Under the pieces are notes generated by a model that saw only the letters and a program-made list of their open reading frames with translations, was not told the origin of the DNA and did not search any database. Below are positions 15,901 to 29,403 of a stretch of 64,000 nt of DNA, piece after piece (within the stretch, counting starts at the first letter, position 1; the number at the start of each line of letters is the position of its first letter). The stretch covers positions 9-64,008 of the forward strand of contig JACOUC010000036.1 of the NCBI GenBank assembly GCA_016178055.1. Direction: 5' to 3'. Position numbers and translations under genes: made by a program. The DNA is from Chlamydiota bacterium (lineage in GTDB: Bacteria > Auribacterota > JACPWU01).

Positions 15901-18900
15901 AAATTCTTCCTTCATGAGAATATTGGCTTGAATCTCTTTAAAAGGCTTACCGTAATGCTGTTCCAGCTCTTTTTGAAAAAGTTTAATAAAAAGGTCCCGC
16001 GTCTTAGGATCAGCCGTTTTTAATCGATCCGCCAGAAATTCACGTAAGGGTCTTTCCTCACACCAGCCCAGGGCACCAAAACCAAAGAATGCAGATATGG
16101 GAGACGTCATTGCGAGGAGCGAGAGCTCCGAAGCAATCCCAGCTTTGCGCAAAACAGAGATGGCTTCGTCGGCTTCACCTCCCTGCAATGACGGCCAAAC
16201 ATAGCTTCCATCCAAAGACGGAAGAGGCAAAAGATTCACCAACCCTAAAGCCAAATTAATTTTGACTCCCCAAATAAGCGGGCCCATTAAAAATCCAAAA
16301 GGCCCAACGGCATTAGCGGCAAGGGCCCCTACCGCAAAGACCACGGCCAAAATTAAATTACTCACCGGCCCCGCAAGCGCTACTTTCTTCATCGAAGATT
16401 CTGAGAGCCGCCAAGAAGAAATAGGAACGGGCTTTAACCACCCGATCGGAATCCCGATCAAAAGCGTAGACGCTAAAAAAGAAATCGTCCCCCAAAAATC
16501 TAAATGCCTCCAAAACCTGAGCAACGTCAATCGCCCCGCCTCCTCAGCCGTCCGATCCCCCAACCTCGCCGCCAGCCATCCATGGGCATATTCATGAAGA
16601 ATCGCGGAGAAGAGAATAATTGCTATCAATGGAACAGCACTTCCTAAAAGGCCAGGGTTGGCCACAAATACAGCGGCAAAAGGAATGCACAAAAAGACAT
16701 AAATATTCTTGACTTGCCCCGGACTTGATTCTATGATTTTTCTCATGAATGAGAAAAAGACTCCAAAACCTATTCCTACTCCAGAAGAAGCCCAGCGATA
16801 CAACTCCGTTATTATTGAGGAGATGAGAAGCCAATTTAAGGTTTTTGGCGAAGGATTAACCGGTTTTAGAAAAGAAACGAATGCACGATTTGACAGACTC
16901 GAAGAAGTCGTTATGGATACGCGTGAACGTGTCTCTAGGGTAGAGAATAGACTCACCAAAGTTGAAGAGAGCAACGCTCGCATTGAATCTGACATTCGCC
17001 TCATCAAAAACCAAATCAAAGTCAAGGTGGATTTAGAAGAATTTAAAGTACTTGAAAATCGGCTTGTGATCGTTGAAAAAAGACTGGCTGCCCTTCCCAT
17101 CTCCGCTTGATTAGCGCTATTTGAAACTCTTCTGGAACCCCCTATACTGCGTATCAAGCCATCCACATCCCCCACATATCCTCCTAATTCCAAGGCTCTT
17201 CTAAGGTAAATTTCTATTGAATGAGCCGTTTGTGCGTGACTCAGGAAAAATCGCATCTGATCTTGCGTGAGCGTAGTCACGCGTTCAAGCCAAAGAAGAG
17301 GGTTTTTCTGCAATTCATCGGAAACTTCCGAACGATTTTCCTTTCCCGCTTTCCTCTCTATTTCTCGAATAACCCCTTCTAAATCTCTCGCCACCTCCTC
17401 CCAATTTTCTAAATTAAGTTCTCGGGCCAAAACCTCTTGATCCCTTTGCCATTGATCAAATTGGAGAGCCGTAAGCCCCGCAGCAAAAGCAGCCTCTTCT
17501 CCCAACGAGCGTATTTCCTCAAGAAAATGAAGCCTCGCGATTTTCTGAAGGGTCGGAAGTGAGGCTTCTTTTAAAGCATCAGGAGCGCCCGAAATAAATC
17601 CAAATTGCTCTTTCATCTTCCTAAAATAGGCGCTGCGATCGTCATGACCCGTCATACGAGGGGCAATGACCCAATAACCGATCTTGGCCTCTTTCAATTT
17701 CTTCGTGATCCCCTCCGTATGAAACCCACCCACCACAAGCGCTGCACAGGGAAGTTTCTTTTCCTGAATTAATTTAAGAGATTTTTCGAACATGATTTTG
17801 TCTCGTTTTAGAACTTGAGTGTAGAATTTTTGGGAGAGGTTAAAGATTTCTCCAAAATCAGGAGATTCATAGTCTATTGCTTCCTTTTTAGCTAATTCGC
17901 CAAGTTGAATTAGAAAATCTCCGATAAAGTCGTTCGGGCCTGCTTGGCTCGAGGCTCGAGGATAATACTTTGCTCGAGGCTCGAAGCTCGAGGCTCGAAG
18001 TAAATGCTTCTCCAGTTTTTGCTTTTGCCTCGAGCCTCGAGCTTCGAGCCGTTTTATGTCTTCCCTACTTCCTTCCATCGCAATCACACGCCTGAGTAGG
18101 TCATAGTCTTTTTCTAACGCCAGCAGCTCTTTCGCCTGAGGCGTTGTCGCCAAATTTTCAACGAGTTCTCCTTCGAGGTTTTTAATTTCTTCATCCAACT
18201 TCTCCCAAGAGATTTGTTTTAGGAGAGACATTTGTTGAATAAGGAGTTGAAGATTGGGATATGGAGCTGATTTCTCGACAGGCTCGAAACGTTTATTAAT
18301 TCTGTTATTGGAGTGCTTCTCGACTGCGCCTCTCGCTCCACTATCGTTTCTCGACGCGTTTCGACTAATGTCGAAACTTGCTTGAAAACTAAATTTATTG
18401 TTCGAGCGTAGTCGAGAACCTTCCTTCGCGTCCTCTACCTCCTCCTGGCCCCTCCTTGTGGTTTGCGCCGTGTTAGGCTCCAACCACTTCCTCGTCCACC
18501 CGCTACGGCGGGTACCCGGACTTGGTCGCAAGGAAGGGAGATTATTTCCCTCTAGCTTCGAGCCTCGAGCCTCGAGCATTCCTAAGTACTTGCTTAGGAA
18601 CAAATAATGCTCTTCATCACTGGTTCTGCCCAGCCGATGCTCTAAGATATTTCTCAAAACTTCATTGAGTTCTTCTTTTGGAAGCTTCTTCTCTAGTTCA
18701 GATAAAAATAAGAGGTATTCAGACTCAATTTTTGATGCGTCCGTTTTCTTTTCGAGTGCTTGGAGTCGAAGGTAGAAATCAAGCTGGGGGTAGTTTTGGC
18801 TCGAAGCTCGAGGCTCAAGGCTCGAGGAGGAAAGAGGAAGAGATTTATTTTCTACATTTTCAGTTTTTCCTTTTGTCTTTGCTTTTGCCTCGAGCTTCGA

Positions 18901-19887
18901 GCCTCGAGCCTTCAGCCCGTTTTCCGCTTCTAGCTGCTTTACATATTCCCCCATCTCTATCTTATGCTCCCTATACTTCTCCCTTTCTTCAATGAGCTCT
19001 ATCAATTCCTTTGGATAAATTTTTTCGGACAAACCCCTAAATATATCATCTAAACCCTGCCAGACATGCTCTTGTAAATTCCTCTCCTTCAAAAGCTCCC
19101 CCATCGCCCTTAAATTCTCGACATAATCAGACAGTTCTTCCACCCCCACTCCCTTAACCTTTTTTGGCCCTTCCTTAACGAGAAAAGTCTCCACCCCATC
19201 GAGTTCATTTTTATCCAAGAATTTTTTGAGAAGAGAAGCTAAAACCCTCTGATCTGGGAAAGACCAGAAAAAGGACATGTCCATTTCACCATCAGCAGCC
19301 TCACAAAATATATGAAATGGTTTAAAATTCTCAGATACGGCTCTAACTTTGAGATTGTTTTGGCTCGAAGCTCGCCCGCCTCGCCTGACTCGTTCGTCAG
19401 ACGAGTCGCCGCCTTTGGCGAGCCTCGCCCTTTGGCGGGAGGTGGGAGGCTCAAGGCTCGAGGTAAATACTTCTGCTTTCTTTGCTTTTGCCTCGAGCTT
19501 CCAGCTTCGAGCCTCGAGCCCGTTTTTTTCTTCGAGCTTCGAGCCTCGAGCCTCTAGCTGCTTTTGTAAAATTTTCAACATCCTCTGAATATTCTCTTGC
19601 GCCTGAGAATTACAATGAATATCTTCAATAATGAAGAGATGAGGTGCTCCGGGGACATAGAATTGATCGGTCACTTCCCCTATTTCATGGGGAATACGCA
19701 TCTCCTCCAAAACTGAACTTAAATCGAGGGATTTGCGATCCACAGGATTAAACTCATTTACAGAAGTGACTGCTTTCAAATGAGTTGCGAATTGAGTATT
19801 CTGGCCAACAGAATAAGAAATGTCATAAAAGAGGAAGGAAAAACAAACGCACAAACTAATCAATGAACGCATAAACCTGACAAGCAT
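3931..19887 (-). CDS. Giant composite ORF1. Order: signal/TM, ChaN/TraB-like N-domain, M50 protease, Clp-type 2xAAA+, beta-propeller-like segment, large unknown region, GT4 glycosyltransferase, SAM-methyltransferase-like block, unknown C-terminus. It may be four fused cistrons.
   Basis: No stop from 19998 to 3931 (5355 codons). Likely start is ATG 19887 (MLVRFMRSLISLCVCFSF, signal-like), preceded by GAGAGGGG. The blocks are separated by stretches that are antisense to real plus-strand genes. In the ORF1 frame these stretches translate as S/T/L/R-rich low-complexity sequence. Confidence 0.55.
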   Translation of the reverse strand: MLVRFMRSLISLCVCFSFLFYDISYSVGQNTQFATHLKAVTSVNEFNPVDRKSLDLSSVLEEMRIPHEIGEVTDQFYVPGAPHLFIIEDIHCNSQAQENIQRMLKILQKQLEARGSKLEEKNGLEARSWKLEAKAKKAEVFTSSLEPPTSRQRARLAKGGDSSDERVRRGGRASSQNNLKVRAVSENFKPFHIFCEAADGEMDMSFFWSFPDQRVLASLLKKFLDKNELDGVETFLVKEGPKKVKGVGVEELSDYVENLRAMGELLKERNLQEHVWQGLDDIFRGLSEKIYPKELIELIEEREKYREHKIEMGEYVKQLEAENGLKARGSKLEAKAKTKGKTENVENKSLPLSSSSLEPRASSQNYPQLDFYLRLQALEKKTDASKIESEYLLFLSELEKKLPKEELNEVLRNILEHRLGRTSDEEHYLFLSKYLGMLEARGSKLEGNNLPSLRPSPGTRRSGWTRKWLEPNTAQTTRRGQEEVEDAKEGSRLRSNNKFSFQASFDISRNASRNDSGARGAVEKHSNNRINKRFEPVEKSAPYPNLQLLIQQMSLLKQISWEKLDEEIKNLEGELVENLATTPQAKELLALEKDYDLLRRVIAMEGSREDIKRLEARGSRQKQKLEKHLLRASSFEPRAKYYPRASSQAGPNDFIGDFLIQLGELAKKEAIDYESPDFGEIFNLSQKFYTQVLKRDKIMFEKSLKLIQEKKLPCAALVVGGFHTEGITKKLKEAKIGYWVIAPRMTGHDDRSAYFRKMKEQFGFISGAPDALKEASLPTLQKIARLHFLEEIRSLGEEAAFAAGLTALQFDQWQRDQEVLARELNLENWEEVARDLEGVIREIERKAGKENRSEVSDELQKNPLLWLERVTTLTQDQMRFFLSHAQTAHSIEIYLRRALELGGYVGDVDGLIRSIGGSRRVSNSANQAEMGRAASLFSTITSRFSSTLNSSKSTLTLIWFLMRRMSDSMRALLSSTLVSLFSTLETRSRVSITTSSSLSNRAFVSFLKPVNPSPKTLNWLLISSIITELYRWASSGVGIGFGVFFSFMRKIIESSPGQVKNIYVFLCIPFAAVFVANPGLLGSAVPLIAIILFSAILHEYAHGWLAARLGDRTAEEAGRLTLLRFWRHLDFWGTISFLASTLLIGIPIGWLKPVPISSWRLSESSMKKVALAGPVSNLILAVVFAVGALAANAVGPFGFLMGPLIWGVKINLALGLVNLLPLPSLDGSYVWPSLQGGEADEAISVLRKAGIASELSLLAMTSPISAFFGFGALGWCEERPLREFLADRLKTADPKTRDLFIKLFQKELEQHYGKPFKEIQANILMKEEFIQKKLDEAAKKLTQILGRIGRQLAQDAEKNPDIKSNLDSEDAEHAASHAVPEALDEMINSGAYTQERFREALTPRLIEKLREMGKMGADDEATVRKLIEECRLPDGVSVVEAIGNWLDEFKILELLQSSNEGGPTSSIVMKPAHTHSHGDGKGEHTHAQHILKIGSVLLAIGTGLLGWIFGSPVFRLSIDAIQDFEILARASSGLSASRNSDAMRRSGLSRETRIASSDDMAQASSIASNGSKGWRLWRWLALSNSVLSGTLTEIIWNIRLIIDRIEASLSRFFLLKRNLSSNRVVRQMSTLERPSSALEIMSNGAFHNSRPVPVSSSSDSQLTMTSVSRMSVGNEGTELSHLAVEGGTFLSDPPGRGLTSRRDEAAAATQERFGNISTSSRKTFRLQFSHQFRQLLQFRGHFKASFIKIVPWGASMINGRSSIASLLFTVVAGLLGYLLGVPFLRLSVGESPMEPLDDYLKRIGLNADVDLGNGQKKKEWQVLKDYTYDLALEADSARPLVGRSEEIGRIMARLATPVRIKNSLVLVGPRGVGKTALVELVSLKLARNNLDGPLKGRRIIALKAGALGSTLSEMSDNLKTLIPLLEKTNNNVILFIDEIHFLLKGPSNSIDTRIADLLKPILEKGRVTVIGATTDPEYKAYIEQDKPFEDRFTKVSVPEPSVQETETILTGAKTYLEGKFSLKIDRATIKAAVKCAQRYLSEKSQPRKAIDVLEGTMGRVNARRNSLEMTKEDFLNRLHSVINEYIDLKKEGVPDTDPTVIEVHNQMIGILEAYHTILSRLSNLRKDIRITQADVQEYLADMTGMAVGALDQDDAAKYLNIEGELHKRVVGQEDAIKAVAQAIRRARAIPGERKRPMGVFFMAGPTGVGKTELAKALAQFLFDSDQALTVFNMSEYQESHQKSRLIGSPPGYVGFQEGGQLTEAVRKRPYSVLLFDEIEKAHSDVLTTLMQVFDEGKLTDGQGNTVDFKNTLIIMTSNIGMEKIQGPLRTLAEELKTAETEEATQAIITQMNDLIAQTVETSIRAKYKPEIINRIDHIIACNVITPENIRQIARILLKRELSDFTENKFKVEVADNVYETLAQRGYDIINGARPLRRLIEQEIRDPLSNRILEEMAQGHILNGGTFHIDINPERGFQFTFDPAPPSDNRLSASQAVAPIFQKIMGLVGQTVDSQNDGVEPAVLSNLIDSERTAPKTDQMNGQYGCFWARTPLPAPPQQRQRSNHNDPQLKDAAITPFTQALPLPEEQRPIAKDWLNEFVRIAKTHNPGRFIELGSELKEGHFNIQIVREGRMSANEEKFLKTHLTGEYPDIEAARQEALRLRESGESNVRNKLLELKAQMASIPGCQLGFTEGENEVTYWLRMECTEAPKVVIVPEPVRDETGSGADSTTTTITADSAGATVTPPSSPSRKRGKKGSVTSTASDAPLGTTTPRSPDSLLTEEAKERIIKRYREYMGKKLVHILVSPDGRTVLTMRFDRTETSWGGDQYNYYLERTRYWSGQVWNVETRELLETFYGGKNWVRSAKFSEDGSQVLTTNGDGSSKIVWQLQTSQSPSLALSEEEPSSGNIIGPEVTPDEEAQWRREIEEQSDKVRSSHEPVVTLVEERSRALAGRLGSEIWSTLVQQGIENDEIVKVLAALQNPREAFKWFEARVLSREKYFLGSESALAVNLMQFLEAEEKSTGISDLVDEATLHEALERTRLTHPQIIQLTDKIFNREGKNPLGKALRRFIEAHILSGETALPAASTLQPLVVRRENVHQRITEEVRQALLSEEIGTLGKLIEGAIQSQVDQLLFLTAVNFVILQDRTLLERYQSKLNILKTKMPSTFSQTLEIYQRLSQAMEKMPDNASMAQGGRICHYDLYRAGQWRQGDQWDVPRDRNDLTLAQSRNAVEALLMKNLETGEGNILLDSLQDELGGRKLSLDDIEFPVQVIRLQEGVYQNIYFILTTLKQTKEVIPLVMVMARDAQEKSRVTSSEYQALLSHRGDAELVEVLRDGEVETQEGKVSAYTSRFINGRDEIQYISPHHAWANRIPPGYLLVNTSLPGKWGAFVEPGDMINTLAAMGRFLVRYYNPEAQTLIDGFRINAGDVGVDVRDLTAAQGRASVISGREMKFSLITWRGTKRGIDPSHFLDYYFNLHWLGSLREGEKGYRHESLGQGHDAILRTGVMQGFLLEMMKKHGNKEGLELAKVWLNHYINEIQARKLSEKPLFKVQELKAFISRYVDPALGSFSSGKGVLLPSYWLASQVTRPLDWFWVNVLGRKSLSRDFKEDFVVPFIEEIFIWALSLGSPVLYAVLRVVFVWGHERRLEAKNELEARSSREKQRTEEVFTSSFEPRASSGFSSSFRRIFIPTLISLVSLLGFFRTGLSSWEMILVVGITFYLVWNLYGARYLARAANFDSRRATRSSRILYSSKSTFTLTRFLMILRSASIRTLLSEIFSTLISPFSSRVSIFPSLISILSTLVSTFSSRVSILSTLVSIRALPSSTPRTRTRKLASSFSIRSNFLSILAKPSSVFSRSPDNPSPKTLNWPRRSSRMTATWLDFITESFSDLFSSMAGIVGQMLRQVKGKSQRAAIFLVVGMGLLILTSLIQPDIALAGLLPDIQPTSVVSNLFSNILRLWPVLAMGLIAHIVSNHWVTVTGALYQKGVLGDDANDDQGSQTSPEGSITVTQGEASTTENLSQLKEAFSGKVLVFYAPGYLEMNGVSTYMDHLLLLLAQEIKGLKIHVIVLGGGQRVSPLLKRDGGKVVVSSELEGVVQIHMTRQNNEPGQDLADEVNGLLRKILQEEGKVDLIVSESSFHYAGNAFNAFGKQNKIPVIQEFHSGPWRLLDRVPEDLVGDSRFFSPNTVNILKKADLALTVSESVQKRFQKDFGVEVECLYPVADLSFYDPRYVTTTKTDDLRVNHSLSGKTVILMSGRPVERKGYDVVLDAILGLSNDLKRNAAVVIAGFTEDMLRDGDDDYNRQFRESLYEKIQHLREEGVLIVLLGPLSAEEMRDWYFLSDIVAMPSRRDEPLKNEETFGLVSLEAQSMGKPVIVSRSGGLPETVVDGETGCIVESGNVEAFRGKIEELIRHPNLRVTMGQRARQVAGKRFSREANLERHLKLFLGVMRRTNILTEIKRIYTEINHQTIEEKNILEGIAAIFGLDFANDDERHREAGKILSIVAALPETRRKEVLENIVRFLKFMTWHASGEHRFMPLALAVVNMFEGRDIFSREPIVRFIQINPQFRYLLDMYHLYANPFGVEAEWIPTHLPSLHLSIPHKDHYRWLDIGSAPKAYGAPTLNLLRKTFEEALPGTHFSYEGTDAFFPSYSLESGEIRESAFNSADFRERGQTDVEGVTYLDARIPQNDVMSESFMQNRSAESFDFISLSMTLHHLKKPDEGVERRFLAKGVDWVDESGNAIQPFYLLTQTQQEVVERLLKRLSHQGVCFLNLPRGEIYFENQNEDLYLVIQRVGENQYCLYQEAIPFQPEYEVYSSVEFLITGLSFPGYNTSGIRSLYPDETNAFFTEINKWLYRADLLVCHYQGRDAFPWASVRAAVRAINERKGLVEIFSAYLHLVPEDEPLKSRILEGVVQFHKQNLIQNFESWAQENITAGLSLREWMESHTVYDILWTLGDATHSFAKETSLSENDLKTLDAVLVELMIQVKHPDLIREAEAHQAKTERLSLELEARRLLDEEGLGQTVQNIEQELEGKVERGEFQQSSITLDFSGDVTWSIRQDMNGASFEMEIGEMTAQLNSQTLGVTHVQMSRPRDLSLALAYLIGLKTKLRHFQKKFLAALKPSADQKPVCLFPDMDLPVQSLGGLSPTEFIKESETGNRKMVFVERKRSREEFDTLCREHQIPQDRVLFLTDLNEQDARSAIDTKVRELFRGKEAEKWLLGHRENRNLYEPIQGLFDKFMYGQEMVSVMAAICYGDAEAITRALLQHGFKPDELEGLLVDVDEHQVTPFANVSRWHDQMEKFREATEMTERSM
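5560..6070 (-). other. ORF1 block: class I SAM-methyltransferase-like region
   Basis: WLDIGSAPKAYGAPT (motif I-like) and FDFISLSMTLHHL (motif III/post-II-like). Weak call made by eye. Confidence 0.35.
6530..7800 (-). other. ORF1 block: GT4-type (GT-B) glycosyltransferase domain
   Basis: VLVFYAPGYLEMNGVSTYMDHL at the N-terminal end of the block. GRPVERKGYD and the EX7E-type ETFGLVSLEAQSMGKPVIVSRSGGLPETV motif lie toward its C-terminal end. Confidence 0.75.
8162..8190 (+). promoter_or_regulatory. Sigma70-type promoter giving a leaderless transcript of the nested coiled-coil gene (copy 1)
   Basis: TTGACT (8162..8167), 17-nt spacer, TACGAT (8185..8190), 7 nt, then ATG at 8198. The geometry is identical to 16709..16737. 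Confidence 0.6.
8198..8695 (+). CDS. Coiled-coil protein of unknown function (copy 1), nested antisense in ORF1
   Basis: MEENKSEN... with six near-perfect heptads (IETKVDK IETRLEK VETKVDK IEIRLGK IETRLEK GEIKVEK). It is a paralog of 16745..17110, sharing QFKVFGEGL and the conserved tail N.RIE.D.R.IKN..KVKVDLEE.K.LE.R. The TTG at 8162 used by the ORF track is the -35 box. Confidence 0.7.
   Translation: MEENKSENDSVMKSSHVAVILEDLRGQFKVFGEGLSGLREKTEEGFARIDKKFDRIENELANFRVRVRGVEDGNARIETKVDKIETRLEKVETKVDKIEIRLGKIETRLEKGEIKVEKISESNVRIEADLRIIKNLVKVKVDLEEYKILEDRVALLESKFAALAR
8848..8945. repeat. In-frame palindromic (GCTCGAG)n hairpin element
   Basis: Left arm 8848..8876, loop TAAATACTTCTTCGGTTCTTTGCTTTTC, right arm 8905..8928. 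In ORF1 it translates as LEAKNELEARSSREKQRTEEVFTSSFEPRASS. Confidence 0.85.
12480..14420 (-). other. ORF1 block: Clp/Hsp100-type double AAA+ ATPase
   Basis: Walker A motifs GPRGVGKT (~14264..14290) and GPTGVGKT (~13255..13280). Also ILFIDEIH, VVGQEDAI, LLFDEIEKAH and GARPLRRLIE motifs. A single TM helix precedes the block (MINGRSSIASLLFTVVAGLLGYLLG). Confidence 0.85.
14615..14643 (+). promoter_or_regulatory. Sigma70-type promoter of the nested PIN module
   Basis: TTGATC (14615..14620), 17-nt spacer, TACTAT (14638..14643). It is followed by the SD AAGGAGG (14651..14657) and ATG 14665. Confidence 0.5.
14665..14853 (+). CDS. Small protein upstream of the PIN gene, putative cognate antitoxin
   Basis: Perfect SD AAGGAGG 7 nt before the ATG. 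The ORF ends 4 nt before the PIN start. No recognisable antitoxin fold by eye. Confidence 0.45.
   Translation: MSAKLQELTELMGELEPKSLSRRSRNVAKALLGSCRGLITPRGKSSTRWIRQERSSLHSKVR
14858..15325 (+). CDS. PIN-domain (VapC-like) ribonuclease, nested antisense in ORF1
   Basis: LILDTDVIVNWL at the N-terminus, LLEL, DPFDAILLACA and SRD acidic-residue motifs of PIN domains. GTG start, with AAGGTGAG upstream. Confidence 0.8.
   Translation: MPSLPTLILDTDVIVNWLSEELETGTGRELWKAPFDIISKAEEGRSSVLICLTTLLELRFLLRRKKRLSDASIRSIINRMFQIISVNVPDKTELLRANHLQSLHPLDPFDAILLACAMSSEEAILVSRDKPLLRIASEFLEALNPEDALAKISKS
16150..16746 (-). other. ORF1 block: M50 (site-2 protease) family metalloprotease
   Basis: HEYAHGW at 16582..16596 (HExxH within a TM helix) and the NLLPLPSLDG motif. 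The block begins at an in-frame Met at 16746 (MRKIIESSPGQVKNIYVFLCIPF). Confidence 0.8.
16709..16737 (+). promoter_or_regulatory. Sigma70-type promoter giving a leaderless transcript of the nested coiled-coil gene (copy 2)
   Basis: TTGACT (16709..16714), 17-nt spacer, TATGAT (16732..16737), 7 nt, then ATG at 16745. Confidence 0.6.
16745..17110 (+). CDS. Coiled-coil protein of unknown function (copy 2), nested antisense in ORF1
   Basis: MNEKKTPKPIP...IIEEMRSQFKVFGEGLTGFRKE...KVKVDLEEFKVLENRL. Paralog of 8198..8695. Confidence 0.7.
   Translation: MNEKKTPKPIPTPEEAQRYNSVIIEEMRSQFKVFGEGLTGFRKETNARFDRLEEVVMDTRERVSRVENRLTKVEESNARIESDIRLIKNQIKVKVDLEEFKVLENRLVIVEKRLAALPISA
17946..18050. repeat. In-frame palindromic (GCTCGAG)n hairpin element
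   Basis: Arms 17972..18000 and 18028..18050, loop TAAATGCTTCTCCAGTTTTTGCTTTTG. Translated as LEARGSRQKQKLEKHLLRASSFEPRA. Confidence 0.85.
18290..18577. repeat. Composite GC-richer insertion ending in a (CCTCGAG)n arm
   Basis: Contains the 20-mer GTTCGAGCGTAGTCGAGAAC (18400..18419), an internal IR CCTTCCTTCGCG/CGCAAGGAAGG, and the arm 18550..18577. ORF2 and ORF3 have no counterpart in their N-domains. Confidence 0.6.
18798..18917. repeat. In-frame palindromic (GCTCGAG)n hairpin element, long-loop variant
   Basis: Arms 18798..18827 and 18888..18917, with a ~60-nt loop similar to that of 54885..55004. Confidence 0.85.
19362..19556. repeat. In-frame (GCTCGAG)n element with a nested GC-rich hairpin insertion
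   Basis: GGCTCGAAGCTCG ... [GACTCGT-TCGTCAG-ACGAGTC hairpin] ... GGCTCAAGGCTCGAGG TAAATACTTCTGCTTTCTTTGCTTTTG CCTCGAGCTTCCAGCTTCGAGCCTCGAGCC. Confidence 0.8.
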
Positions 19888-20069
19888 GACAACCCCTCTC
19901 GATCTTGAAAAAATCAATAATGACTGCAAGCTTACATAAGTAAAGACACTTTGGGGACTAGAAATGTAAAAATAAAAATTTAGAAATTTCCATCTCACAA
20001 TTGATAAAGGAAGGTTTCTTATAGAATAACCAGCTATTCCTTCAAGCCCTTACATAATGATTTCCTCTA

Positions 20070-21978: not shown

Positions 21979-22070
21979 GAGTTATCCATTTTCAATTTTA
22001 AATTATCAATTTGTTTTAGATAGCCAATCGCCACAACTTATTCTACAATCTTTTTCCAAAATCTAATGTA

Positions 22071-22236
22071 ACCCAAGAACAGAGATAGGAAAATGGAATT
22101 CGACGCAAGATCTTGGCCATCTTGTCCTTCAGAAAGCCTCGACAGACACCTCTCAGTGTATGCCTACGTTTTCTTCAGGCCAATCTAGCTCAAGCTTTTG
22201 CGTCTCGGTTCTCATTTCCTATCTCTGTCCTTGGGT
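22071..22236. repeat. 166-bp element with ~48-nt imperfect terminal inverted repeats (MITE-like, or a structured 5' leader)
   Basis: ACCCAAGAACAGAGATAGGAAAATG (22071..22095) pairs with CATTTCCTATCTCTGTCCTTGGGT (22213..22236). Complementarity continues inward (GACGCAA/TTGCGTC). The element ends 12 nt before the debranching-enzyme ATG. Confidence 0.6.
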
Positions 22237-22247
22237 ACGAATGAATC

Positions 22248-24209
22248 ATGATCGCATTTCATAAAGAAATTCTAAAGAACTATGATCGGGCCTCTAAACG
22301 AGAATGGGTCGTCACCAATGGCCTGGGCGGTTACGCCTCTTCGACCATCTGTGGCGCCAATACTCGCCGATATCACGGCCTCCTGGTTGCAAGTATAGAG
22401 CCCCCCACCAACCGCATGGTCATTCTCTCTAAAGTAGAGGAAACCATTCACATCGATGGAAAATCCTATGATCTTTCTTGCAACAAATTTCCTGAAACCA
22501 TTCATCCGATGGGTCATCAACATTTAGAACTTTTTTCTTTTGAATTCTACCCCAAATTCATTTACTCCGTTGATGGGGTTCGACTCGAAAAAAATGTTTA
22601 TATGATTTTTGAAAAGAATGCGACAATTATTTTTTATCGCCTGCTTGAGAGTCCTAAACCGATTAAACTCAGTCTCATGAGTTTTGTGGCTTGTCGAAGA
22701 TTCCATGAACTCACCCATGAGAATCCTTTCTTTAATCCCAAAGTCGAATGTCAAGAGGGCCTACTCAGACTGAAGCCCTACAAAAATGCCCCGATGATTC
22801 ATTTCTTTTTTAGCCCTGCGCAATTTGCCGATAACCCATTATGGTATCAAAATTTTGAATATGAAAAGGAATACCGTCGAGGCCTGGATTATCGTGAAGA
22901 TTTATTTACCCCTGGCGACTTAACGTTTGACATCGCTCCGGGAGGCTCCTGTTTCCTGATTGTTTCAACCGACGAGCTTTCATCCTCAGATCTTCTTCAG
23001 GCAGAATTTAAAGAAACAGAACGAAAAAAACTGATTCTAAAAAATTGCAATAAAGACGATAAGCTTGCCTTTTCCCTCTTCTTGGCGGCAGATACTTTTC
23101 TTGTCCAAAGAGGAGAAAAAGGTTCTGCCTCTGTCATTGGGGGATATCACTGGTTTAGTGATTGGGGGCGTGACACCATGATCAGCCTTCCCGGACTTAC
23201 CTTAGCGACAGGTCGATTTGACCTTGCAAAAAGCATTCTCACCACCTATTCAAAATATTGTTCACAGGGAATGCTCCCGAACCGATTTCCTGATGAAGGA
23301 AAAGAGCCTGACTACAACACCGTCGATGCAACCCTGTGGTTTTTTAATGCGATCTACCAATATTTTCTTTATACCGGCGATGAAATTTTTATTCGCTCGA
23401 CGCTTTTTCCTGTTCTTAAAGATATGATTCACTGGCATGAACAGGGAACCCGCTATCAAATTCACGTGGAAGAGGACGGTCTTCTTTTTGCAGGAGAAAA
23501 AGGCAGCCAATTGACTTGGATGGATGCAAAAATTGGTGACAATGTCATCACTCCCCGTGTAGGGAAAGCCGTTGAAGTGAACGCCCTTTGGTATAACGCC
23601 CTCAAAATCATGGAATTTTTTTCCGATCGATTTGGTTTTCTCCCACTCAGAGACCATTATAGCTCAATGGCCGACCTGGCAAAAAAAAGTTTTAACCACC
23701 TCTTTTGGAATCCCGAACTCGAATGCCTCTATGATGTTATTCAAGAAAATCAGGGAGATCCGTCGATTCGCCCCAATCAAATTTTTTCAATCAGCCTTCC
23801 CTTCCCTATTCTTAAAACAGAGCACCATCGTCCCGTTTTAAAAATCATTGAACAAGAACTCCTCACCCCTTATGGGCTTCGAAGTCTCTCCCCTCAAAAT
23901 CCAAAATACACAGGAAAATATTCCGGTAACGCCATTGTCCGTGACAAATCTTATCATCAAGGAACCGTTTGGCCCTGGCTCTTGGGGCCCTATGTTACTT
24001 CTTTTTTAAAAGTCCATGGTCGTACGGGCCGCACCCTTGATAAAGTCAAAGAAATGCTTGAACCTTTTCGGGATCATCTTTATGAAAATGGCATTGGAAC
24101 CATCTCCGAACTCTTTGATGGAGACGCACCCCATGAGCCCAATGGATGCATTTCTCAGGCCTGGAGTGTTGCAGAAATTTTGAGAGTCGTTGTGGAAGAA
24201 CTGAAATAA
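22248..24209 (+). CDS. Glycogen debranching enzyme (amylo-alpha-1,6-glucosidase family)
   Basis: 653 aa. It has GGYASSTICGANTRRYHGLL, GYHWFSDWGRDTMISLPGL and the C-terminal QAWS motif typical of the archaeal/bacterial GDE family. Confidence 0.85.
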   Translation: MIAFHKEILKNYDRASKREWVVTNGLGGYASSTICGANTRRYHGLLVASIEPPTNRMVILSKVEETIHIDGKSYDLSCNKFPETIHPMGHQHLELFSFEFYPKFIYSVDGVRLEKNVYMIFEKNATIIFYRLLESPKPIKLSLMSFVACRRFHELTHENPFFNPKVECQEGLLRLKPYKNAPMIHFFFSPAQFADNPLWYQNFEYEKEYRRGLDYREDLFTPGDLTFDIAPGGSCFLIVSTDELSSSDLLQAEFKETERKKLILKNCNKDDKLAFSLFLAADTFLVQRGEKGSASVIGGYHWFSDWGRDTMISLPGLTLATGRFDLAKSILTTYSKYCSQGMLPNRFPDEGKEPDYNTVDATLWFFNAIYQYFLYTGDEIFIRSTLFPVLKDMIHWHEQGTRYQIHVEEDGLLFAGEKGSQLTWMDAKIGDNVITPRVGKAVEVNALWYNALKIMEFFSDRFGFLPLRDHYSSMADLAKKSFNHLFWNPELECLYDVIQENQGDPSIRPNQIFSISLPFPILKTEHHRPVLKIIEQELLTPYGLRSLSPQNPKYTGKYSGNAIVRDKSYHQGTVWPWLLGPYVTSFLKVHGRTGRTLDKVKEMLEPFRDHLYENGIGTISELFDGDAPHEPNGCISQAWSVAEILRVVVEELK

Positions 24210-24214
24210 AGCCT

Positions 24215-24245
24215 ATTTCGAATCTCGGATTTCGAATTTCGAATT
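24215..24245. repeat. Left heptamer-repeat arm of the four-helix-bundle cassette
   Basis: ATTTCGA ATCTCGG ATTTCGA ATTTCGA ATT. Its reverse complement shares an 18-19 nt perfect core with 24617..24649. Confidence 0.8.
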
Positions 24246-24255
24246 GAAAAACAAA

Positions 24256-24618
24256 ATGAATTCTCAAGAGTTAAAAACGAGGACTAAACTGTTTGGACTT
24301 AAAATCATTCTTTTGGTTGAAAAATTGCCACGTTCAAAAACATTGGATATTATAAATCGTCAACTTCTACGCTCTGCAACATCCATCGGGGCAAATTATA
24401 GAGCTGCATGTCGTGCAAGATCCAAAGCGGATTTTGTGTCAAAAATTGGCATTGTCGAAGAAGAATCCGATGAATCAGTTTATTGGCTTGAATTGCTTAT
24501 AGAAACTAAGCTGGTTACTGATACCCAAATACATGTCTTGCTTAAAGAAGCAAACGAGTTAACAGCGATCTTTACCGCAACAGGAAGAACTACAAAAGAA
24601 AAACAGAAAAATGAATAA
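24256..24618 (+). CDS. Four-helix-bundle protein (23S rRNA intervening-sequence protein family)
   Basis: LPRSKTLDIINRQLLRSATSIGANYRAACRARSKADFVSKIGIVEEESDESVYWLELL fits the family pattern. ATG at 24256; the track start 24244 is a TTG inside the repeat arm. Confidence 0.8.
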   Translation: MNSQELKTRTKLFGLKIILLVEKLPRSKTLDIINRQLLRSATSIGANYRAACRARSKADFVSKIGIVEEESDESVYWLELLIETKLVTDTQIHVLLKEANELTAIFTATGRTTKEKQKNE

Positions 24619-26113
24619 ATCCGAGATTCGAAATCCGAAATCCGAAATCAAGAGGCTTTCCCTCGAATCCCTTGCCCAAAATGCCCTCGATGAGGCTATT
24701 TCGCTTGGAGCTTCCTACGCCGATGTCCGATTAATTGAATCCACCAGCCGAAATCTGGCCACCAAAAATGGAGTTCCAACCAGTTTGGATATTGAAGAAT
24801 CGCAAGGCCTAGGAATCAGGCTTCTTTATCATGGGGCCTGGGGATTTGCGGCTACGCATGATCTTTCAAATGAAAATGTATTACGGACAGCCTTTAAAGC
24901 CATTAAAATTGCTAAGGCCAGCGCCCTCACAAAAAAAGAGCCTGTTCGACTGGCCGAAGAAAAACCGATTCAAACAGAATGGTCCAGCCCCTTCTCCATC
25001 GATCCTTTTTCAGTTCCTATTGAAGAGCAACTTAATTTTTTATTACAAATCGATGAAGAAATCAGAAAAACCAAAGGGATCAGCATCTCTGAAACATCCA
25101 TGCATTTTCATAAAGAACACAAACTTTTTCTCTCGAGCGAAGGAAGCCGTATTCTCCAGCACTTTATCACCAGTGGAGCAGGGTTTGTTGCGATGGCTTT
25201 TCGAGATGGAGAATTGCAAAAACGTTCTTACCCTAATTCCTTTGGGGGACAATACCAAAAAAAGGGTTATGAGCTCATTCAAGAGCTAGAACTTCTCAAA
25301 AACGTTCCAAGAATCGCTGAAGAAACCGTTCGCCTTTTAGATGCCCCCAGTTGCCCTGTTGGAGAAAAGGATCTCATTTTAGACAGCTCTCAACTCGGTC
25401 TTCAAATCCATGAATCGGTTGGACACCCTATTGAGCTCGATCGAGTGCTCGGAAGTGAGGCCAATTACGCCGGAAAAAGTTTTCTTACGCTAGATCAATT
25501 AAAAACCCTTCAGTACGGATCCCCTATTGTTCACGTCGTCGCTGACGCTAGACTTTCACATGGTCCAGGTCTCGGCACGTTTGGCTATGATGATGAGGGC
25601 GTCCCTGCACAAGGAACGGATATTATTCGAGAGGGACAATTTGTAGGCTATCTCTCCTCTCGCGAGACCGCTCAAGATATCGGCGAAACACGCAGCAATG
25701 GAACCATGCGAGCTGAAAGCTGGAATCGGATTCCATTAATCCGCATGACCAATATTAGCCTCATGCCAAAAAATTGGGACTTTGAAAACTTAATTGCAGA
25801 CACAAAAGATGGAATTTATTTAGAAACAAATCGAAGCTGGAGCATTGATGATCGTAGGCTCAATTTTCAATTTGGAACTGAAATAGGATGGGAAATTAAA
25901 AATGGCAAGAAGATGAATAGGGTCAAAAACCCAATTTATTGGGGAATCACACCCGAATTCTGGAACGCCTGCGATGCCATTTGTAGTGATCGATATTGGA
26001 CGCTCTGGGGAACTCCCAATTGTGGCAAAGGACAACCCTGCCAAACCATGGGAACAGGTCACGGTTCTAGTCCAGCTAGGTTTCGCGGGATAAAGGTTGG
26101 AGCCAGTCATTGA
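24611..26113 (+). CDS. tldD: TldD-family metalloprotease
   Basis: 500 aa. The HESVGHPIELD (HExxxH) motif and overall TldD/PmbA architecture are present, and it pairs with the PmbA-like gene downstream. The only in-frame start lies inside the cassette arm. Confidence 0.8.
   Translation: MNKSEIRNPKSEIKRLSLESLAQNALDEAISLGASYADVRLIESTSRNLATKNGVPTSLDIEESQGLGIRLLYHGAWGFAATHDLSNENVLRTAFKAIKIAKASALTKKEPVRLAEEKPIQTEWSSPFSIDPFSVPIEEQLNFLLQIDEEIRKTKGISISETSMHFHKEHKLFLSSEGSRILQHFITSGAGFVAMAFRDGELQKRSYPNSFGGQYQKKGYELIQELELLKNVPRIAEETVRLLDAPSCPVGEKDLILDSSQLGLQIHESVGHPIELDRVLGSEANYAGKSFLTLDQLKTLQYGSPIVHVVADARLSHGPGLGTFGYDDEGVPAQGTDIIREGQFVGYLSSRETAQDIGETRSNGTMRAESWNRIPLIRMTNISLMPKNWDFENLIADTKDGIYLETNRSWSIDDRRLNFQFGTEIGWEIKNGKKMNRVKNPIYWGITPEFWNACDAICSDRYWTLWGTPNCGKGQPCQTMGTGHGSSPARFRGIKVGASH
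24617..24649. repeat. Right heptamer-repeat arm of the four-helix-bundle cassette
   Basis: AAATCCG AGATTCG AAATCCG AAATCCG AAATC. Translated as the first residues of TldD (KSEIRNPKSEI). Confidence 0.8.
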
Positions 26114-26119
26114 CAAGAA

Positions 26120-26178
26120 GATCTATAAACGCGGATCTAACGCAGATCTATAAACGCAGATCAAATGCGGATCTATTT
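26120..26178. repeat. Left repeat arm of the GxxExxY cassette
   Basis: Tandem GATCTATAAACGCG / GATCTAACGCA / GATCTATAAACGCA / GATCAAATGCG units, complementary to the right-arm units GATCCGCGTTT. Confidence 0.75.
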
Positions 26179-26655
26179 ATGGCTATAGAAGAAAAATTGC
26201 TGTATCAGGAGATTACATATGAGATTAGAGGAGCGTGTTTCTGGATATGGAAGGAATTCGCAAGTGCATTCAAAGAATCTATCATTGATAAAGCCCTCAC
26301 GGAGGAACTCAAGAAAAGGGGACTTAAGGTTGATAACCAAAAACACATAGACATTTTCTACAACAAAAAGAAAGTAGGAACTTATATTCCTGATAAAGTT
26401 ATCAATGATTGTGTGCTCGTTGAACTCAAAAGAAAACCTTTTTTACTACGGCAAGATAAAGAACAATTGTGGCATTATTTAAAAGGATCCGAATACAAAT
26501 TGGGTTTGCTAATCAACTTTGGAGAAAACGAACTAGAGTTTGAACGCATCGCCTACGACACTAAAAGAAGATCAAAGAGAGATCAGCGCCAGATCCGCGT
26601 TGCAGATCCGCGTTTGATCCGCGTAGTAGATCCGCGTTTGATCCGCGAACAATGA
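26179..26655 (+). CDS. GxxExxY protein (PD-(D/E)XK-like family)
   Basis: MAIEEKLLYQEITYEIRGACF... and LGLLINFG are typical of the GxxExxY family. The C-terminal 25-30 aa (IRVADPRLIRVVDPRLIREQ) are read from the right repeat arm. The track start 26110 is a TTG. Confidence 0.75.
   Translation: MAIEEKLLYQEITYEIRGACFWIWKEFASAFKESIIDKALTEELKKRGLKVDNQKHIDIFYNKKKVGTYIPDKVINDCVLVELKRKPFLLRQDKEQLWHYLKGSEYKLGLLINFGENELEFERIAYDTKRRSKRDQRQIRVADPRLIRVVDPRLIREQ
26581..26650. repeat. Right repeat arm of the GxxExxY cassette
   Basis: Five units of (CA)GATCCGCGTTTG type. The arm ends at the ATGA stop/start overlap with pmbA. Confidence 0.75.
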
Positions 26656-27992
26656 AAATACTCAAAGAGAAATCTGAACAAGTTTTTGATACGGTTTTCA
26701 AAACCAGTCAGGCTGATGAAACTGAAATTCATTTTAACTGGATCACCCATGCCCTCACCCGGTTTGCCAATAACGAGATTCATCAAAATATGGGGGACGA
26801 AGATATTGAAGTTTCGATTCGTTCATCCTTTGGAAAAAAAACGGCTCGGGTCACTACGAATAAAACGGACATGGAATATCTCAAAAAAATGACCCAGTTG
26901 TCAAATCATCTGGCTTCCCTAACCCCTGAGGATCCCGACCTTCTTCCCATGCCAGGGCCCCAAACTTATCCCACAGTGAAACACGCTTATGAAAGAACAG
27001 ATCACATCAAAGCTGAAACCAGAGCTCGTGCGGTTTCAGTCCCCATCAAAATCGCACAACTAAAAAATCTGACTTGCGCAGGTATTTTCGCAAATGATCT
27101 CACACGTCATGCCCTTGGAAATTCCAAAGGACTTCGAGCCTATTCTGAGGAAACCTACGCTGTTTTTTCAACCACCATGATGGATAACAAACTAGGTTCA
27201 GGTTGGGCAAAAATGGGTCACCCCGATTCTACTCAAATCCCCGTCGAAACCTTGGCCTTACAGGCTTCTGAAAAAGCTATTTTAAGTAAGAATCCGATTG
27301 ATATTTCTGCAGGTGCTTACACCGTGATTCTCGAACCCTCTGCTGTGCTTGATCTCCTTGAATTCATGCTTCTTGATTTTGGAGGACTTTCCGTTTTAGA
27401 ACAAAGGAGTGCCTTTACAGAAAAATTGGATAAAAAAATTTTTGGTTCAAATATTACTTTTAAGGATGATATTTATCACCCCTTACAATCAGGAGCCCCC
27501 TTTGACGGTGAAGGATTTCCAAAAAAGCAAATTGAGTTGGTCCAAAATGGCATTTTAAAAAATTTGGTCTATAGCCAATCAAGCGCTCTTCGCTCTCAAA
27601 AAAAGCCTACAGGCCATGGATTTCCGGTTCCCAACGCTTATGGAGAAGCACCCATGAATTTCGTCATGAACGGGGGAAACTCCTCCCTCAAGCAAATGAT
27701 TGAAGGAACGGATCGAGGGCTTCTCATGACTCGTTTCTGGTATATCCGTGAAGTCGATCCCATGCAAAAAATCTTGACGGGAATGACAAGAGATGGGACT
27801 TTTTTAATTGAAAATGGCGTTTTAAAATCGGCCGTTAAAAATTTAAGATTCAACGAAAGCTTATTTCATCTATTAAATAATGTGGTTGAATTAGGACCCA
27901 GTGTCCGTGCCTCTGGAGAGGAAGGAATGGATATGATTGTCCCTGCTTTAAAAGCGAACGATTTTCACTTTACAAGCAGTACTAAATATTAA
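26652..27992 (+). CDS. pmbA: PmbA/TldE-family protein (TldD partner)
   Basis: 446 aa with the TldD/PmbA-family fold pattern but no HExxxH motif. It lies downstream of tldD. Confidence 0.75.
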   Translation: MKILKEKSEQVFDTVFKTSQADETEIHFNWITHALTRFANNEIHQNMGDEDIEVSIRSSFGKKTARVTTNKTDMEYLKKMTQLSNHLASLTPEDPDLLPMPGPQTYPTVKHAYERTDHIKAETRARAVSVPIKIAQLKNLTCAGIFANDLTRHALGNSKGLRAYSEETYAVFSTTMMDNKLGSGWAKMGHPDSTQIPVETLALQASEKAILSKNPIDISAGAYTVILEPSAVLDLLEFMLLDFGGLSVLEQRSAFTEKLDKKIFGSNITFKDDIYHPLQSGAPFDGEGFPKKQIELVQNGILKNLVYSQSSALRSQKKPTGHGFPVPNAYGEAPMNFVMNGGNSSLKQMIEGTDRGLLMTRFWYIREVDPMQKILTGMTRDGTFLIENGVLKSAVKNLRFNESLFHLLNNVVELGPSVRASGEEGMDMIVPALKANDFHFTSSTKY

Positions 27993-27994
27993 TA

Positions 27995-28226
27995 AAATCC
28001 AAAATTTAAACATCAAAAATCAAAATGACATCTCAAAATCCAAAATATATCTATGTCATAGATCATGAAATCATTTTAAATTTTAATATGTCATTTTGAT
28101 TTTTGTCATCATGAACTTTCAGTCCACCCAAGTGGATGAAAATTGAGTTCCTCCCCTTTGGGGTACAAAGGAGGGAAATAGCCAGTAACAACGTCTCATT
28201 TTCATGACTGAATTTTGATTTTTGGA
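27995..28226. repeat. Intergenic inverted-repeat element with AAAATCA-type heptamer arms
   Basis: CATCAAAAATCAAAATGAC (28010..28028) pairs with GTCATTTTGATTTTTG (28091..28106). A further copy GAATTTTGATTTTTGG lies at ~28210..28225. There is an internal hairpin CCTCCCCTTTG-GGGTA-CAAAGGAGGG. Confidence 0.55.
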
Positions 28227-28242
28227 ATATCGAAAGGATACT

Positions 28243-29085
28243 ATGTTTTACTCTAAAACTAAAATGTCTCTTAAACTCGCCCACAGTCCCGACGCCGATG
28301 ACGCATTCATGTTTTACGGTCTAGCCAAAGGTTTTGTTCCGTCTGAAGAAATTGAATTCACACATATCTTAAGCGATATCGAAACCCTTAATCAAAAAGC
28401 CAAAGAAGGGATTTATGAAGTCACCGCCCTTTCAGTCCATGCCTATCCTTATGTCAGCGACCGCTATAACATTTTAAAATCTGGCGCAAGCATTGGAGAT
28501 AACTATGGCCCCCTTTTAGTCGCTCGAGAAAAAATGAGCATTGAAGATCTTAAATGGAAAATCATTGCGGTTCCCGGAACCCTGACCACAGCTTATCTTG
28601 CTCTTAAACTTTTTGACCGAAATATTCGAACCAAAATCATTCCTTTCAATCAAATTATTGCAGCCGTGGAAAAAAAAGAAGTGGATGTTGGCCTGATCAT
28701 TCATGAAGGACAGCTTACATTTTCAAAAAATGGCCTTCATAAAATTTTAGATTTAGGAGTTTGGTGGAACGAAACAACCGGACTTCCTCTTCCCCTCGGA
28801 GTGAACGGAATTCGAAAAGATTTAGAACCCTCTCTTCAGAAAAAAATCGCCCGTCTTATTAAAGAAAGTATTTGTTATTCACTTTCCCATCGAAAAGAAG
28901 CGGTAGAGTACGCCCTTCAATTTGCTCGTGGAATGGATCCCGTCCTTGCGGATAAATTTATTGGCATGTATGTGAACGACGACACCATTGAAATGAGCGA
29001 GCAAAGCCAAAAAGCCATTGACGTCCTTCTCACTAGAGCCTTTGAGGAAGGATTAATCCTCCAAAAAAAATTAGAATATATCTAA
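28243..29085 (+). CDS. MqnA/MqnD-family menaquinone (futalosine pathway) protein
   Basis: LKLAHSPDADDAFMFYGL and a periplasmic-binding-like architecture typical of the MqnA/MqnD family. Start set at ATG 28243 (AAAGGA upstream); the track start 28222 is a TTG. Confidence 0.65.
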   Translation: MFYSKTKMSLKLAHSPDADDAFMFYGLAKGFVPSEEIEFTHILSDIETLNQKAKEGIYEVTALSVHAYPYVSDRYNILKSGASIGDNYGPLLVAREKMSIEDLKWKIIAVPGTLTTAYLALKLFDRNIRTKIIPFNQIIAAVEKKEVDVGLIIHEGQLTFSKNGLHKILDLGVWWNETTGLPLPLGVNGIRKDLEPSLQKKIARLIKESICYSLSHRKEAVEYALQFARGMDPVLADKFIGMYVNDDTIEMSEQSQKAIDVLLTRAFEEGLILQKKLEYI

Positions 29086-29244: not shown

Positions 29245-29345
29245 ATAGCCCGATAAAGGCAAACTATTCGAAAGAATGGGGCGCAAAGTTACAGATCCGA
29301 AGATTTTGAGTTCGTGAATCGTATAACATTCCACGAGTCAGGAAC
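29245..29345 (+). promoter_or_regulatory. c-di-GMP-I (GEMM-I) riboswitch aptamer
   Basis: 29258..29288 reads GGCAAACTATTCGAAAGAATGGGGCGCAAAG. This matches the core of the V. cholerae Vc2 aptamer as I recall it (GGCAAACCAUUCGAAAGAGUGGGACGCAAAG) at 28 of 31 positions. Two of the three differences keep the GAAA-capped stem paired. A second hairpin follows. Confidence 0.7.
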
Positions 29346-29403
29346 CCAGAGTCAGGGTGGCTGAACTGCCAAAGGCTGTGAACTTAGAGTTCCTTTGTGC
29401 ACA

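Follow-up and report, generated by a model that had tools for sequence, protein, structure and literature searches.

The window analysed here is a stretch of 64,000 nucleotides from a Chlamydiota bacterium (contig JACOUC010000036.1, positions 9 to 64,008 of the forward strand), in which a small gene for a four-helix-bundle protein lies between a glycogen debranching enzyme gene and tldD and is enclosed by two complementary arrays of tandem heptamers. The gene and its arms are together referred to as the cassette, and the features described are on the + strand unless stated otherwise. The debranching enzyme gene (22248–24209) was recognized by its GDE_N and GDE_C domains (Pfam E-values of 7e-135 and 8e-78, respectively) and ends with the stop codon TAA at 24207–24209, while tldD (24611–26113) encodes a protein of 500 aa with Pfam PmbA_TldD domains. 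These neighbours are the ones named in an initial annotation, which was made from the letters of the sequence alone, and the cassette occupies the entire gap between the debranching enzyme stop codon and tldD.

The cassette gene (24256–24618) encodes a protein of 120 aa, which matched PF05635 (23S_rRNA_IVP) with 62.8 bits (cut-off 33.8, E 4e-17, profile positions 9–104 of 106), TIGR02436 ("four helix bundle protein") with 82.9 bits (cut-off 24, E 1.8e-23) and the solved structure PDB 2RLD with an E-value of 7.5e-19. Both profile scores exceed the curated cut-offs over the full domain, so the protein belongs to the family first found in the intervening sequences (IVS) of 23S rRNA, as the initial annotation had proposed. 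The ATG at 24256 fits as the start codon, with homologues of 60–73% identity aligning from residue 1, and the same frame holds a TTG at 24244. The cassette gene (24246–24261, GAAAAACA-AAAATGAAT) and tldD (24596–24616, GAAAAACAGAAAAATGAAT) have nearly identical start contexts, a similarity that may be due to chance, the sequence being A-rich, or to internal duplication of a start module. The GC content at third codon positions is 0.26 in the cassette gene and 0.37–0.40 in its neighbours, a difference consistent with a foreign origin. A promoter and terminator scan of 22000–28300 returned no sites above those of shuffled sequence and no sign of a promoter or terminator of the cassette, and the PADLOC defence models matched neither this protein nor that of a second cassette described below.

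The left arm (24215–24245) reads ATTTCGA ATCTCGG ATTTCGA ATTTCGA ATT and the right arm (24617–24649) reads AAATCCG AGATTCG AAATCCG AAATCCG AAATC. Besides a repeat search, Tandem Repeats Finder (TRF) recovered both with a period of 7, the unit ATTTCGA being repeated 4.4 times on the left and AAATCCG 4.7 times on the right. The inverted-repeat search returned arms of 31 nt with 87% complementarity (24215–24245 and 24618–24648), which share a perfect inverted core of 18 nt (24215–24232 and 24617–24634); by our own estimate, a perfect inverted repeat of that length is expected by chance about 4e-6 times within 700 nt. Local alignment of the upstream flank with the reverse-complemented downstream flank scored 42, whereas 500 shuffles averaged 15 and never exceeded 28. 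The hairpin is real and well past chance, and the complementary heptamer arms with their long perfect core, as first described, were upheld by search, fold and alignment.

The RNA fold of 24195–24675, with a minimum free energy (MFE) of -110 kcal/mol, has a single predicted stem of ~35 bp that closes the entire open reading frame (ORF) in its loop. Both arrays in this stem are of one unit type, which is tandem only at this locus within the window, and the heptamers are able to pair in several registers. Outside the heptamers, the inverted-repeat search and the fold placed a left stem base, AAAGCCT, at 24208–24214, where it shares the last two bases of the debranching enzyme stop codon, while the fold and DNA alignment placed a right stem base, AGGCTTT, at 24653–24659, where it encodes TldD residues ~15–17. 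As AAAGCCU and AGGCUUU, the two are paired in both the MFE and the centroid fold, and the right base probably belongs to the element, since it has no homology to the tldD genes of relatives. No target-site duplication was seen at the cassette edges, where the flanking bases are inverted (AAAGCCT/AGGCTTT) and not direct, and the longest direct repeat in 24100–24800 is of 25 nt with 72% identity.

Start codon and N-terminus of tldD

The tldD frame is open from 24563, and the ATG at 24611–24613, which lies within the last codons of the cassette gene in an overlap of 8 nt (ATGAATAA), is the sole ATG, GTG or TTG before the end of the right arm. The next canonical start is a TTG at 24785 (residue 59), the use of which would lose 58 residues, including positions invariant in relatives, and the NCBI annotation of the source genome gives an identical 500-aa product with its start at 24611. 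That tldD is without a canonical start other than the cassette-internal ATG is thereby shown, in agreement with the initial annotation. The additional claim that the right arm supplies both the start codon and the N-terminus of TldD stood only for the latter: the arm encodes residues 3–13 (KSEIRNPKSEI) and the stem base extends to about residue 16, whereas the start codon belongs to the interior of the cassette, 6 nt before the arm begins.

The N-terminus of TldD in the window is MNKSEIRNPKSEIK, and residues 1 to ~16 read MNKSEIRNPKSEIKRL. As had been expected if the arm is read as protein, the relatives without this cassette begin differently, with M(Q)MKEHKYHFT in L164 and L165 (another 'Chlamydiae bacterium' metagenome-assembled genome) and with MLNTSQKVQTRIS in L001 (Candidatus Auribacterota). 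Homology to these three begins, in both protein and DNA, at ...SESLAQ, window residue ~18 or about nt 24660; over the first 100 residues the identities are 78, 78 and 68%, with none at the N-terminus. The tblastn matches of TldD in 80 relatives start mostly at residues 11–25, ranging from 2 to 36. Because homology to the relatives starts only at ~18, residues 1 to ~16 are taken as cassette sequence and the remainder as the conserved protein, and the alignments thus show the native 5′ end of tldD to have been replaced by the cassette.

Packaging and placement of related genes

A protein search scored at least 8000 candidates, and the flanks of related genes were surveyed in one metagenome scan, in which at least 80 loci carried four-helix-bundle genes of 50–65% identity; 69 of the loci listed had enough flank for arm tests. 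A flank complementarity score of at least 32 was reached in 51 of the 69 loci and in none of 207 control windows shifted by 700–900 nt, and in 61 of the 69 the flanks paired better than all shuffles. Periodicity was scored as lag-7/14 self-similarity of at least 20/28 per flank (cut-offs of 19–21/28 were used, and at 23/28 the window itself fails), by which 60 of the 69 loci had a period of 7/14 in at least one flank and 39 in both, compared with two of 242 controls. The median arm length was 33 nt. Unit sequences vary among loci (ATTGCGG, ATTTTGG, GTTTGAG, AATGCGG, ATTAGGA and others) while the two arms within a locus match, and loci with more similar proteins have more similar arms (Mantel r 0.26, p 5e-4); among the non-self homologues examined, the nearest (L082, 72% identity) has window-like ATT[TG]CG[AG] heptamers. 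Since arm similarity tracks protein identity, arms and gene form one heritable unit, and these comparisons show hairpin packaging to be common to most related genes elsewhere. Because duplexfold (ViennaRNA) was too permissive on flanks of 120–140 nt, mismatch classes were counted instead: G.U-type positions numbered 43 on the + strand versus 66 on the - strand, and most mismatches were transversions.

The left arm of a surveyed locus usually starts close to the upstream stop codon, a few bases away at most. Placement on the other side was counted at 44 loci whose arms were strong and whose downstream flank measured 400 nt or more, where the next co-directional gene begins no more than 45 nt past the right arm in 23, the cassette ORF runs through the arm and overlaps the next start in eight, the next gene can start only before the arm, which then becomes its N-terminus, in four, the arrangement is unclear in three, and six are without a co-directional downstream gene. 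The arm-encoded N-terminus belongs to TldD in the window, to Ddl in L137, to an ABC ATPase in L163 and to LeuD in L140, and two of these four loci have an ATGA overlap with the cassette stop codon, so the layout seen in the window is a minority outcome that nevertheless recurs. The cassette gene shares its strand with the upstream neighbour at 42 of 54 loci and with the downstream neighbour at 38 of 56.

Comparisons between close loci indicate that the arms turn over quickly. The arms of L123 and L126 differ by one unit. In L094 and L131 (mreB-cassette-mreC), which come from near-identical strains whose flanks differ at only a handful of positions, the left arm is scrambled and the cassette ORF diverges over its initial ~25 nt, while the right arm is identical. 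At three loci (L113, 807–905; L150, 170–268; L155, 964–1062) the cassette lies directly after tRNA-Sec and before the same downstream gene, with heptamer units that are all different and proteins that are 61–69% identical.

Neighbouring hairpins and other repeats

No Shine-Dalgarno-like motif was found for the debranching enzyme gene, tldD or pmbA, and because such motifs are lacking and no promoter or terminator signal rises above background, the stretch from the debranching enzyme gene through the cassette and tldD to pmbA looks like one transcription unit. The second cassette spans 26114–26651, exactly between the tldD stop codon and the start of pmbA (tldE; 26652–27992, identified by Pfam), the downstream host gene. 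Its left arm (26114–26176) consists of tandem units of ~11–14 nt (AGATCTATAAACGC / AACGCAGATCT) and its right arm (26580–26647) of AGATCCGCGTT units, both found by repeat search and TRF, and its gene (26179–26655) encodes a GxxExxY protein, which scored 97 bits against PF13366 (PDDEXK_3; cut-off 22, E 1e-27) and 96.9 bits against TIGR04256 (cut-off 35) and is therefore a member of the GxxExxY / PDDEXK_3 family. This ORF runs through its own right arm, giving the protein a tail of ~25 aa, and then overlaps pmbA by ATGA; GxxExxY homologues are of ~130–140 aa and cover 78–85% of the protein. The flanks aligned with a score of 52 (shuffle maximum 26), and the predicted closing stem is of ~46 bp, with a fold z of -4.8. 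In L001, the tldD-pmbA junction is TGA-AAAA-ATG, an empty site for the second cassette, while L164/L165 carry the second cassette at exactly the same junction as the window, with different numbers of arm units.

Relatives of the GxxExxY cassette were also located further afield. Arms of the CGCGGATCT type, like those of the second cassette, were observed in the Portnoybacteria contig L166, where the GxxExxY cassette likewise feeds a prepilin leader, and CGCGAAA-type arms in the Chloroflexota locus L075; a scan of viral contigs found no GxxExxY relatives. Directly 3′ of the pmbA stop codon lies a hairpin without an ORF (27994–28110, TRF and inverted-repeat search), with heptamer-like arms of AAAATCN / ATTTTNA that are 33 nt long and 88% complementary. 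A copy with 81% identity lies upstream of tldD in L164 (1270–1370), and because it stands at a different place in that relative, the hairpin is regarded as a dispersed element. With hairpin elements between the debranching enzyme gene and tldD, between tldD and pmbA, and after pmbA, every junction of the operon therefore carries one.

Elsewhere in the window, tandem heptamers of the GCTCGAG/GCCTCGA type, mostly forming short hairpins, lie inside very long minus-strand ORFs (8848–8927, 17946–18050, 18549–18577, 18798–18917, 19490–19559, 36485–36515, 54885–55004, 55621–55652, 63036–63068 and 63345–63403). The unit is stop-free in six frames, and the arrays preserve the reading frame, giving the peptides LEARGSKLEAK... 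/ SSLEPRASS, a pattern that resembles, by analogy, palindromic elements that insert in frame into genes. Three minus-strand ORFs are giant, namely 3931–19998 (5355 aa), 35563–56601 (7012 aa) and 56702–63754 (2350 aa); the 5355-aa one combines M50-peptidase-like, ClpB-like AAA+ and GT4 glycosyltransferase regions. In frame within the 2350-aa ORF are two 36-nt arms (57706–57741 and 58076–58111), 97% complementary and 334 nt apart, which are built of CCCCTCTTG...CAAGAGGGG local palindromes and not of heptamers. An orphan array, ATTTCGG(ATTTTGG)x4, lies at 62897–62929 with no complementary partner within 1.5 kb among the inverted repeats listed; its unit is close to that of the cassette arms, and its minus-strand translation, KIQNPKSKIRN, is similar to the arm-encoded TldD peptide IRNPKSEIK. 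A c-di-GMP-I riboswitch aptamer was detected at 29248–29373 (Rfam RF01051, 56.9 bits, E 1.8e-8) and was the only Rfam match, neither cassette giving one.

Interpretation and comparison with known systems

The element between the debranching enzyme gene and tldD is, in our judgement, probably an intact copy of a widespread, horizontally spreading and promoterless hairpin gene cassette, that is, an Avd-like four-helix-bundle gene within inverted heptamer arrays, of the same kind as the ORF-bearing IVS of 23S rRNA and lodged at the junction of two protein-coding operon genes. The cassette gene would be expressed by read-through of the operon. The predicted stem of ~35 bp starts 9 nt past the tldD AUG and would hinder isolated 30S initiation, and a ribosome ending the cassette gene, whose stop codon lies 3 nt past this AUG, could melt the top of the stem and re-initiate on tldD. 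As the terminating ribosome would open the stem, we infer that expression of tldD is translationally coupled to the cassette gene. By analogy with rRNA IVS, the stem is also a natural candidate substrate of RNase III; a cut in the right arm would leave tldD without its AUG, and cleavage would therefore either be poor during translation of the arm or act as a switch that lowers tldD-pmbA expression. The several pairing registers of the repeat arms might buffer the frequent gain and loss of units.

Several observations weigh against this interpretation. The whole-region fold has a z of only -2.3, which is modest, and the pattern of arm mismatches bears no sign of selection on the sense RNA, so that the complementarity could serve DNA or be merely copied. 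L131 has lost arm complementarity but keeps its ORF, so the element can do without pairing. It is conceivable that tldD starts at a rare non-canonical codon of the arm (ATT at 24626 or ATC at 24647), although its N-terminus would then still be arm-encoded. An empty junction between the debranching enzyme gene and tldD was not found, the upstream synteny being different in both relatives. No mobility enzyme was identified for the cassette, we know of no catalytic activity of the four-helix-bundle protein, and all that is known of the organism is a metagenome-assembled genome.

A serious rival is that the arms act in mobility at the level of DNA, though on balance we think it unlikely. According to it, a recombinase or nuclease provided in trans would use the arms as sites of recognition or of folding (into a single-strand hairpin or a cruciform), much as with folded attC sites or with the repetitive extragenic palindromic sequences (REP) and their hairpin doublets (REPIN) with the associated tyrosine transposase (RAYT), and the RNA stem is a by-product. 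The strand-symmetric complementarity fits such a role, as do the Mantel correlation, by which arms travel with the gene, and the ORF-less hairpins of related heptamers, which are dispersed and stand at different sites in two relatives. The second cassette adds a clean pair of empty and filled sites and a protein of the PD-(D/E)XK nuclease fold, which is a candidate for a role in mobility. However, no transposase, integrase or Y1 enzyme lies in or beside the cassette, its edges have inverted outer bases and no target-site duplication, and the co-orientation bias together with the placement against stop and start codons suggests constraints of transcription and translation.

We consider it improbable that the element acts strictly as an RNA-level IVS, the stem being cut efficiently by RNase III so that the cassette mRNA is freed, the operon transcript split and tldD expressed in some other way. 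The anatomy is that of the Coxiella IVS excised by RNase III (PMC4990558), a predicted duplex of ~35 bp is long enough for this enzyme, and the second cassette folds with a z of -4.8. Against efficient cutting, the only canonical tldD start lies on the loop side, so a cut in 24622–24659 would detach the coding body, for which no start follows before residue 59. Three further loci are arranged alike and in eight the ORF runs through the arm, from which it follows that ribosomes regularly cross intact arms, and the arm mismatches have no G.U bias on the sense strand.

Still more doubtful is the proposal that the heptamer arrays are operator-like sites for the four-helix-bundle pentamer, serving autoregulation or the protection of its own RNA or DNA, with the hairpin as a secondary matter. 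The family is homologous to the nucleic-acid-associated protein Avd of diversity-generating retroelements (DGR) (PMC10053308), and the period of 7 is strictly retained while the unit sequence drifts with the protein. Co-inheritance, however, accounts for the Mantel correlation just as well, the arms of GxxExxY cassettes are built of units of ~9–14 nt and accompany an unrelated protein, and ORF-less heptamer hairpins abound in the window with no four-helix-bundle gene near. A chance juxtaposition, in which two arrays of a heptamer-microsatellite-rich genome happen to flank a small gene, would suit a window in which period-7 arrays number more than 20 and fall into several unit types, but it has a vanishingly small probability and is already refuted by the complementarity, shuffle and period-7 controls, given that the flanking arrays share one unit type, are tandem only there and are mutually complementary, and that the same layout recurs in 51–61 of 69 unrelated loci against none of 207 shifted controls.

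Returning to the promoterless hairpin cassette, the evidence is for a kind much broader than so far described. A bolder version, to which we give somewhat less than an even chance, would make the ORF-bearing 23S IVS no more than the conspicuous members of a very large class of mobile hairpin cassettes that has so far gone undescribed. Such cassettes would carry either an Avd-like four-helix-bundle gene or a GxxExxY PD-(D/E)XK nuclease gene within inverted tandem-repeat arms (period 7, or ~9–14 nt for the nuclease), colonise operon junctions, tRNA-adjacent sites and rRNA helices across many phyla, be expressed by read-through and be able to rewire the start codon and N-terminus of the downstream gene.

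Where the rRNA IVS and their conserved ORF come from, how they move and what purpose they serve are questions that have stood open since the early 1990s, with few rRNA sites studied. If the element routinely lies between protein-coding genes, many natural insertion sites become available for study, and filled and empty junctions would reveal which targets it follows, how its arms change and what it does to the host. Hairpin cassettes would also account for unusual N- or C-terminal tails that repeats encode in annotated proteins, and the window would offer a concrete case of a selfish element made obligatory for translating a housekeeping gene. In two CRISPR surveys, 23S_rRNA_IVP genes situated between cas genes are recorded as associated with them (PMC3936711, PMC10910872), a link that may simply reflect junction-seeking insertion.

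No account of such genes being enclosed by hairpins or heptamers anywhere but in rRNA was found in the literature, most subscription journals lying outside the search, and the element was compared with several known systems. REP/REPIN sequences with RAYT and integron cassettes are small promoterless units with hairpin-forming repeats, situated between operon genes and present or absent at junctions. The window cassettes resemble the former in coexisting with many ORF-less, REPIN-like hairpin copies, whereas their cargo is neither a Y1 transposase nor integrase-linked, and the heptamer arms stand on both sides of the ORF and do not form a REP doublet. A REP/REPIN-RAYT system was ruled out because the cargo is PF05635 only, with no Y1 transposase, and an integron gene cassette because complementary heptamers lie on both sides in place of a single 3′ attC; the neighbours are housekeeping genes with no intI or cassette array among them, the rest of the genome not having been searched for intI. 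Although the homologous four-helix-bundle fold and family are shared with Avd (PMC10053308), the gene of the window has no reverse transcriptase, template or variable repeat beside it, and a DGR was ruled out because the neighbours are the debranching enzyme and TldD genes, with no reverse transcriptase or template/variable repeat pair (TR/VR). A miniature inverted-repeat transposable element or palindromic element was likewise ruled out by the intact conserved ORF and the lack of a direct target-site duplication. Rickettsia palindromic elements are palindromic, selfish and ORF-less, and are inserted in genes and translated within host proteins; in the window cassette, by contrast, an ORF is carried and only the right arm has been co-opted, as an N-terminal extension, and the ORF-less GCTCGAG-type hairpins elsewhere in the window are the closer parallel.

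Comparable intergenic heptamer repeats are known from Cyanobacteria as short tandemly repeated repetitive sequences (STRR). Tandem heptamers of TAACTGA are intergenic in Cyanobacteria, Beggiatoaceae and some Bacteroidetes, with a patchy distribution across phyla, and their arrays frequently stop ~1 nt from the downstream start codon (PMC4679880). The period of 7 and the intergenic position are common to these repeats and the arrays of the window. However, the former are described as direct repeats lacking an inverted partner (one inverted case in 170 sets) and have no link to a cargo gene, whereas the latter are complementary pairs around a specific family.

The closest relation is with the ORF-containing IVS of 23S rRNA, which are also reported for Leptospira, Brucella, Xanthomonas and Haemophilus. 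Strict membership was rejected, since the flanking genes encode the debranching enzyme and TldD and not 23S rRNA, and no rRNA was found with Rfam near the cassette (23500–28500, permissive search) or in the 64-kb window (gathering threshold). The likeness to the architecture of RNase III-processed IVS, which the initial annotation had drawn from the long stem around a small ORF, proved closer than claimed: the IVS of Coxiella burnetii 23S rRNA, of 428–444 nt, has a 28-bp stem of terminal inverted repeats with an S23p (PF05635) ORF in its loop, carries three to four tandem heptamers (GACAGAT), variable in number between strains, ahead of the start codon, and is cut by RNase III in the stem at the first repeat (PMC4990558). 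ORF-bearing IVS, like the cassette, also have a sporadic, horizontally transferred distribution (PMC4990558, PMC11270868). The cassette in the window likewise has terminal inverted repeats that close one long stem with a PF05635 ORF in the loop, tandem heptamers beside the ORF that vary in copy number (60 of 69 loci; L123 versus L126), a size of ~430–450 nt and no strong ribosome-binding site of its own. It differs in its host, which is the mRNA of the junction between the debranching enzyme gene and tldD and not helix 25 or 45 of 23S rRNA, and in lending tldD its start codon and N-terminus, by which excision would be harmful and not neutral. The element is thus best called a member of the IVS kind in a new setting, that of an operon mRNA and the donation of a start codon.

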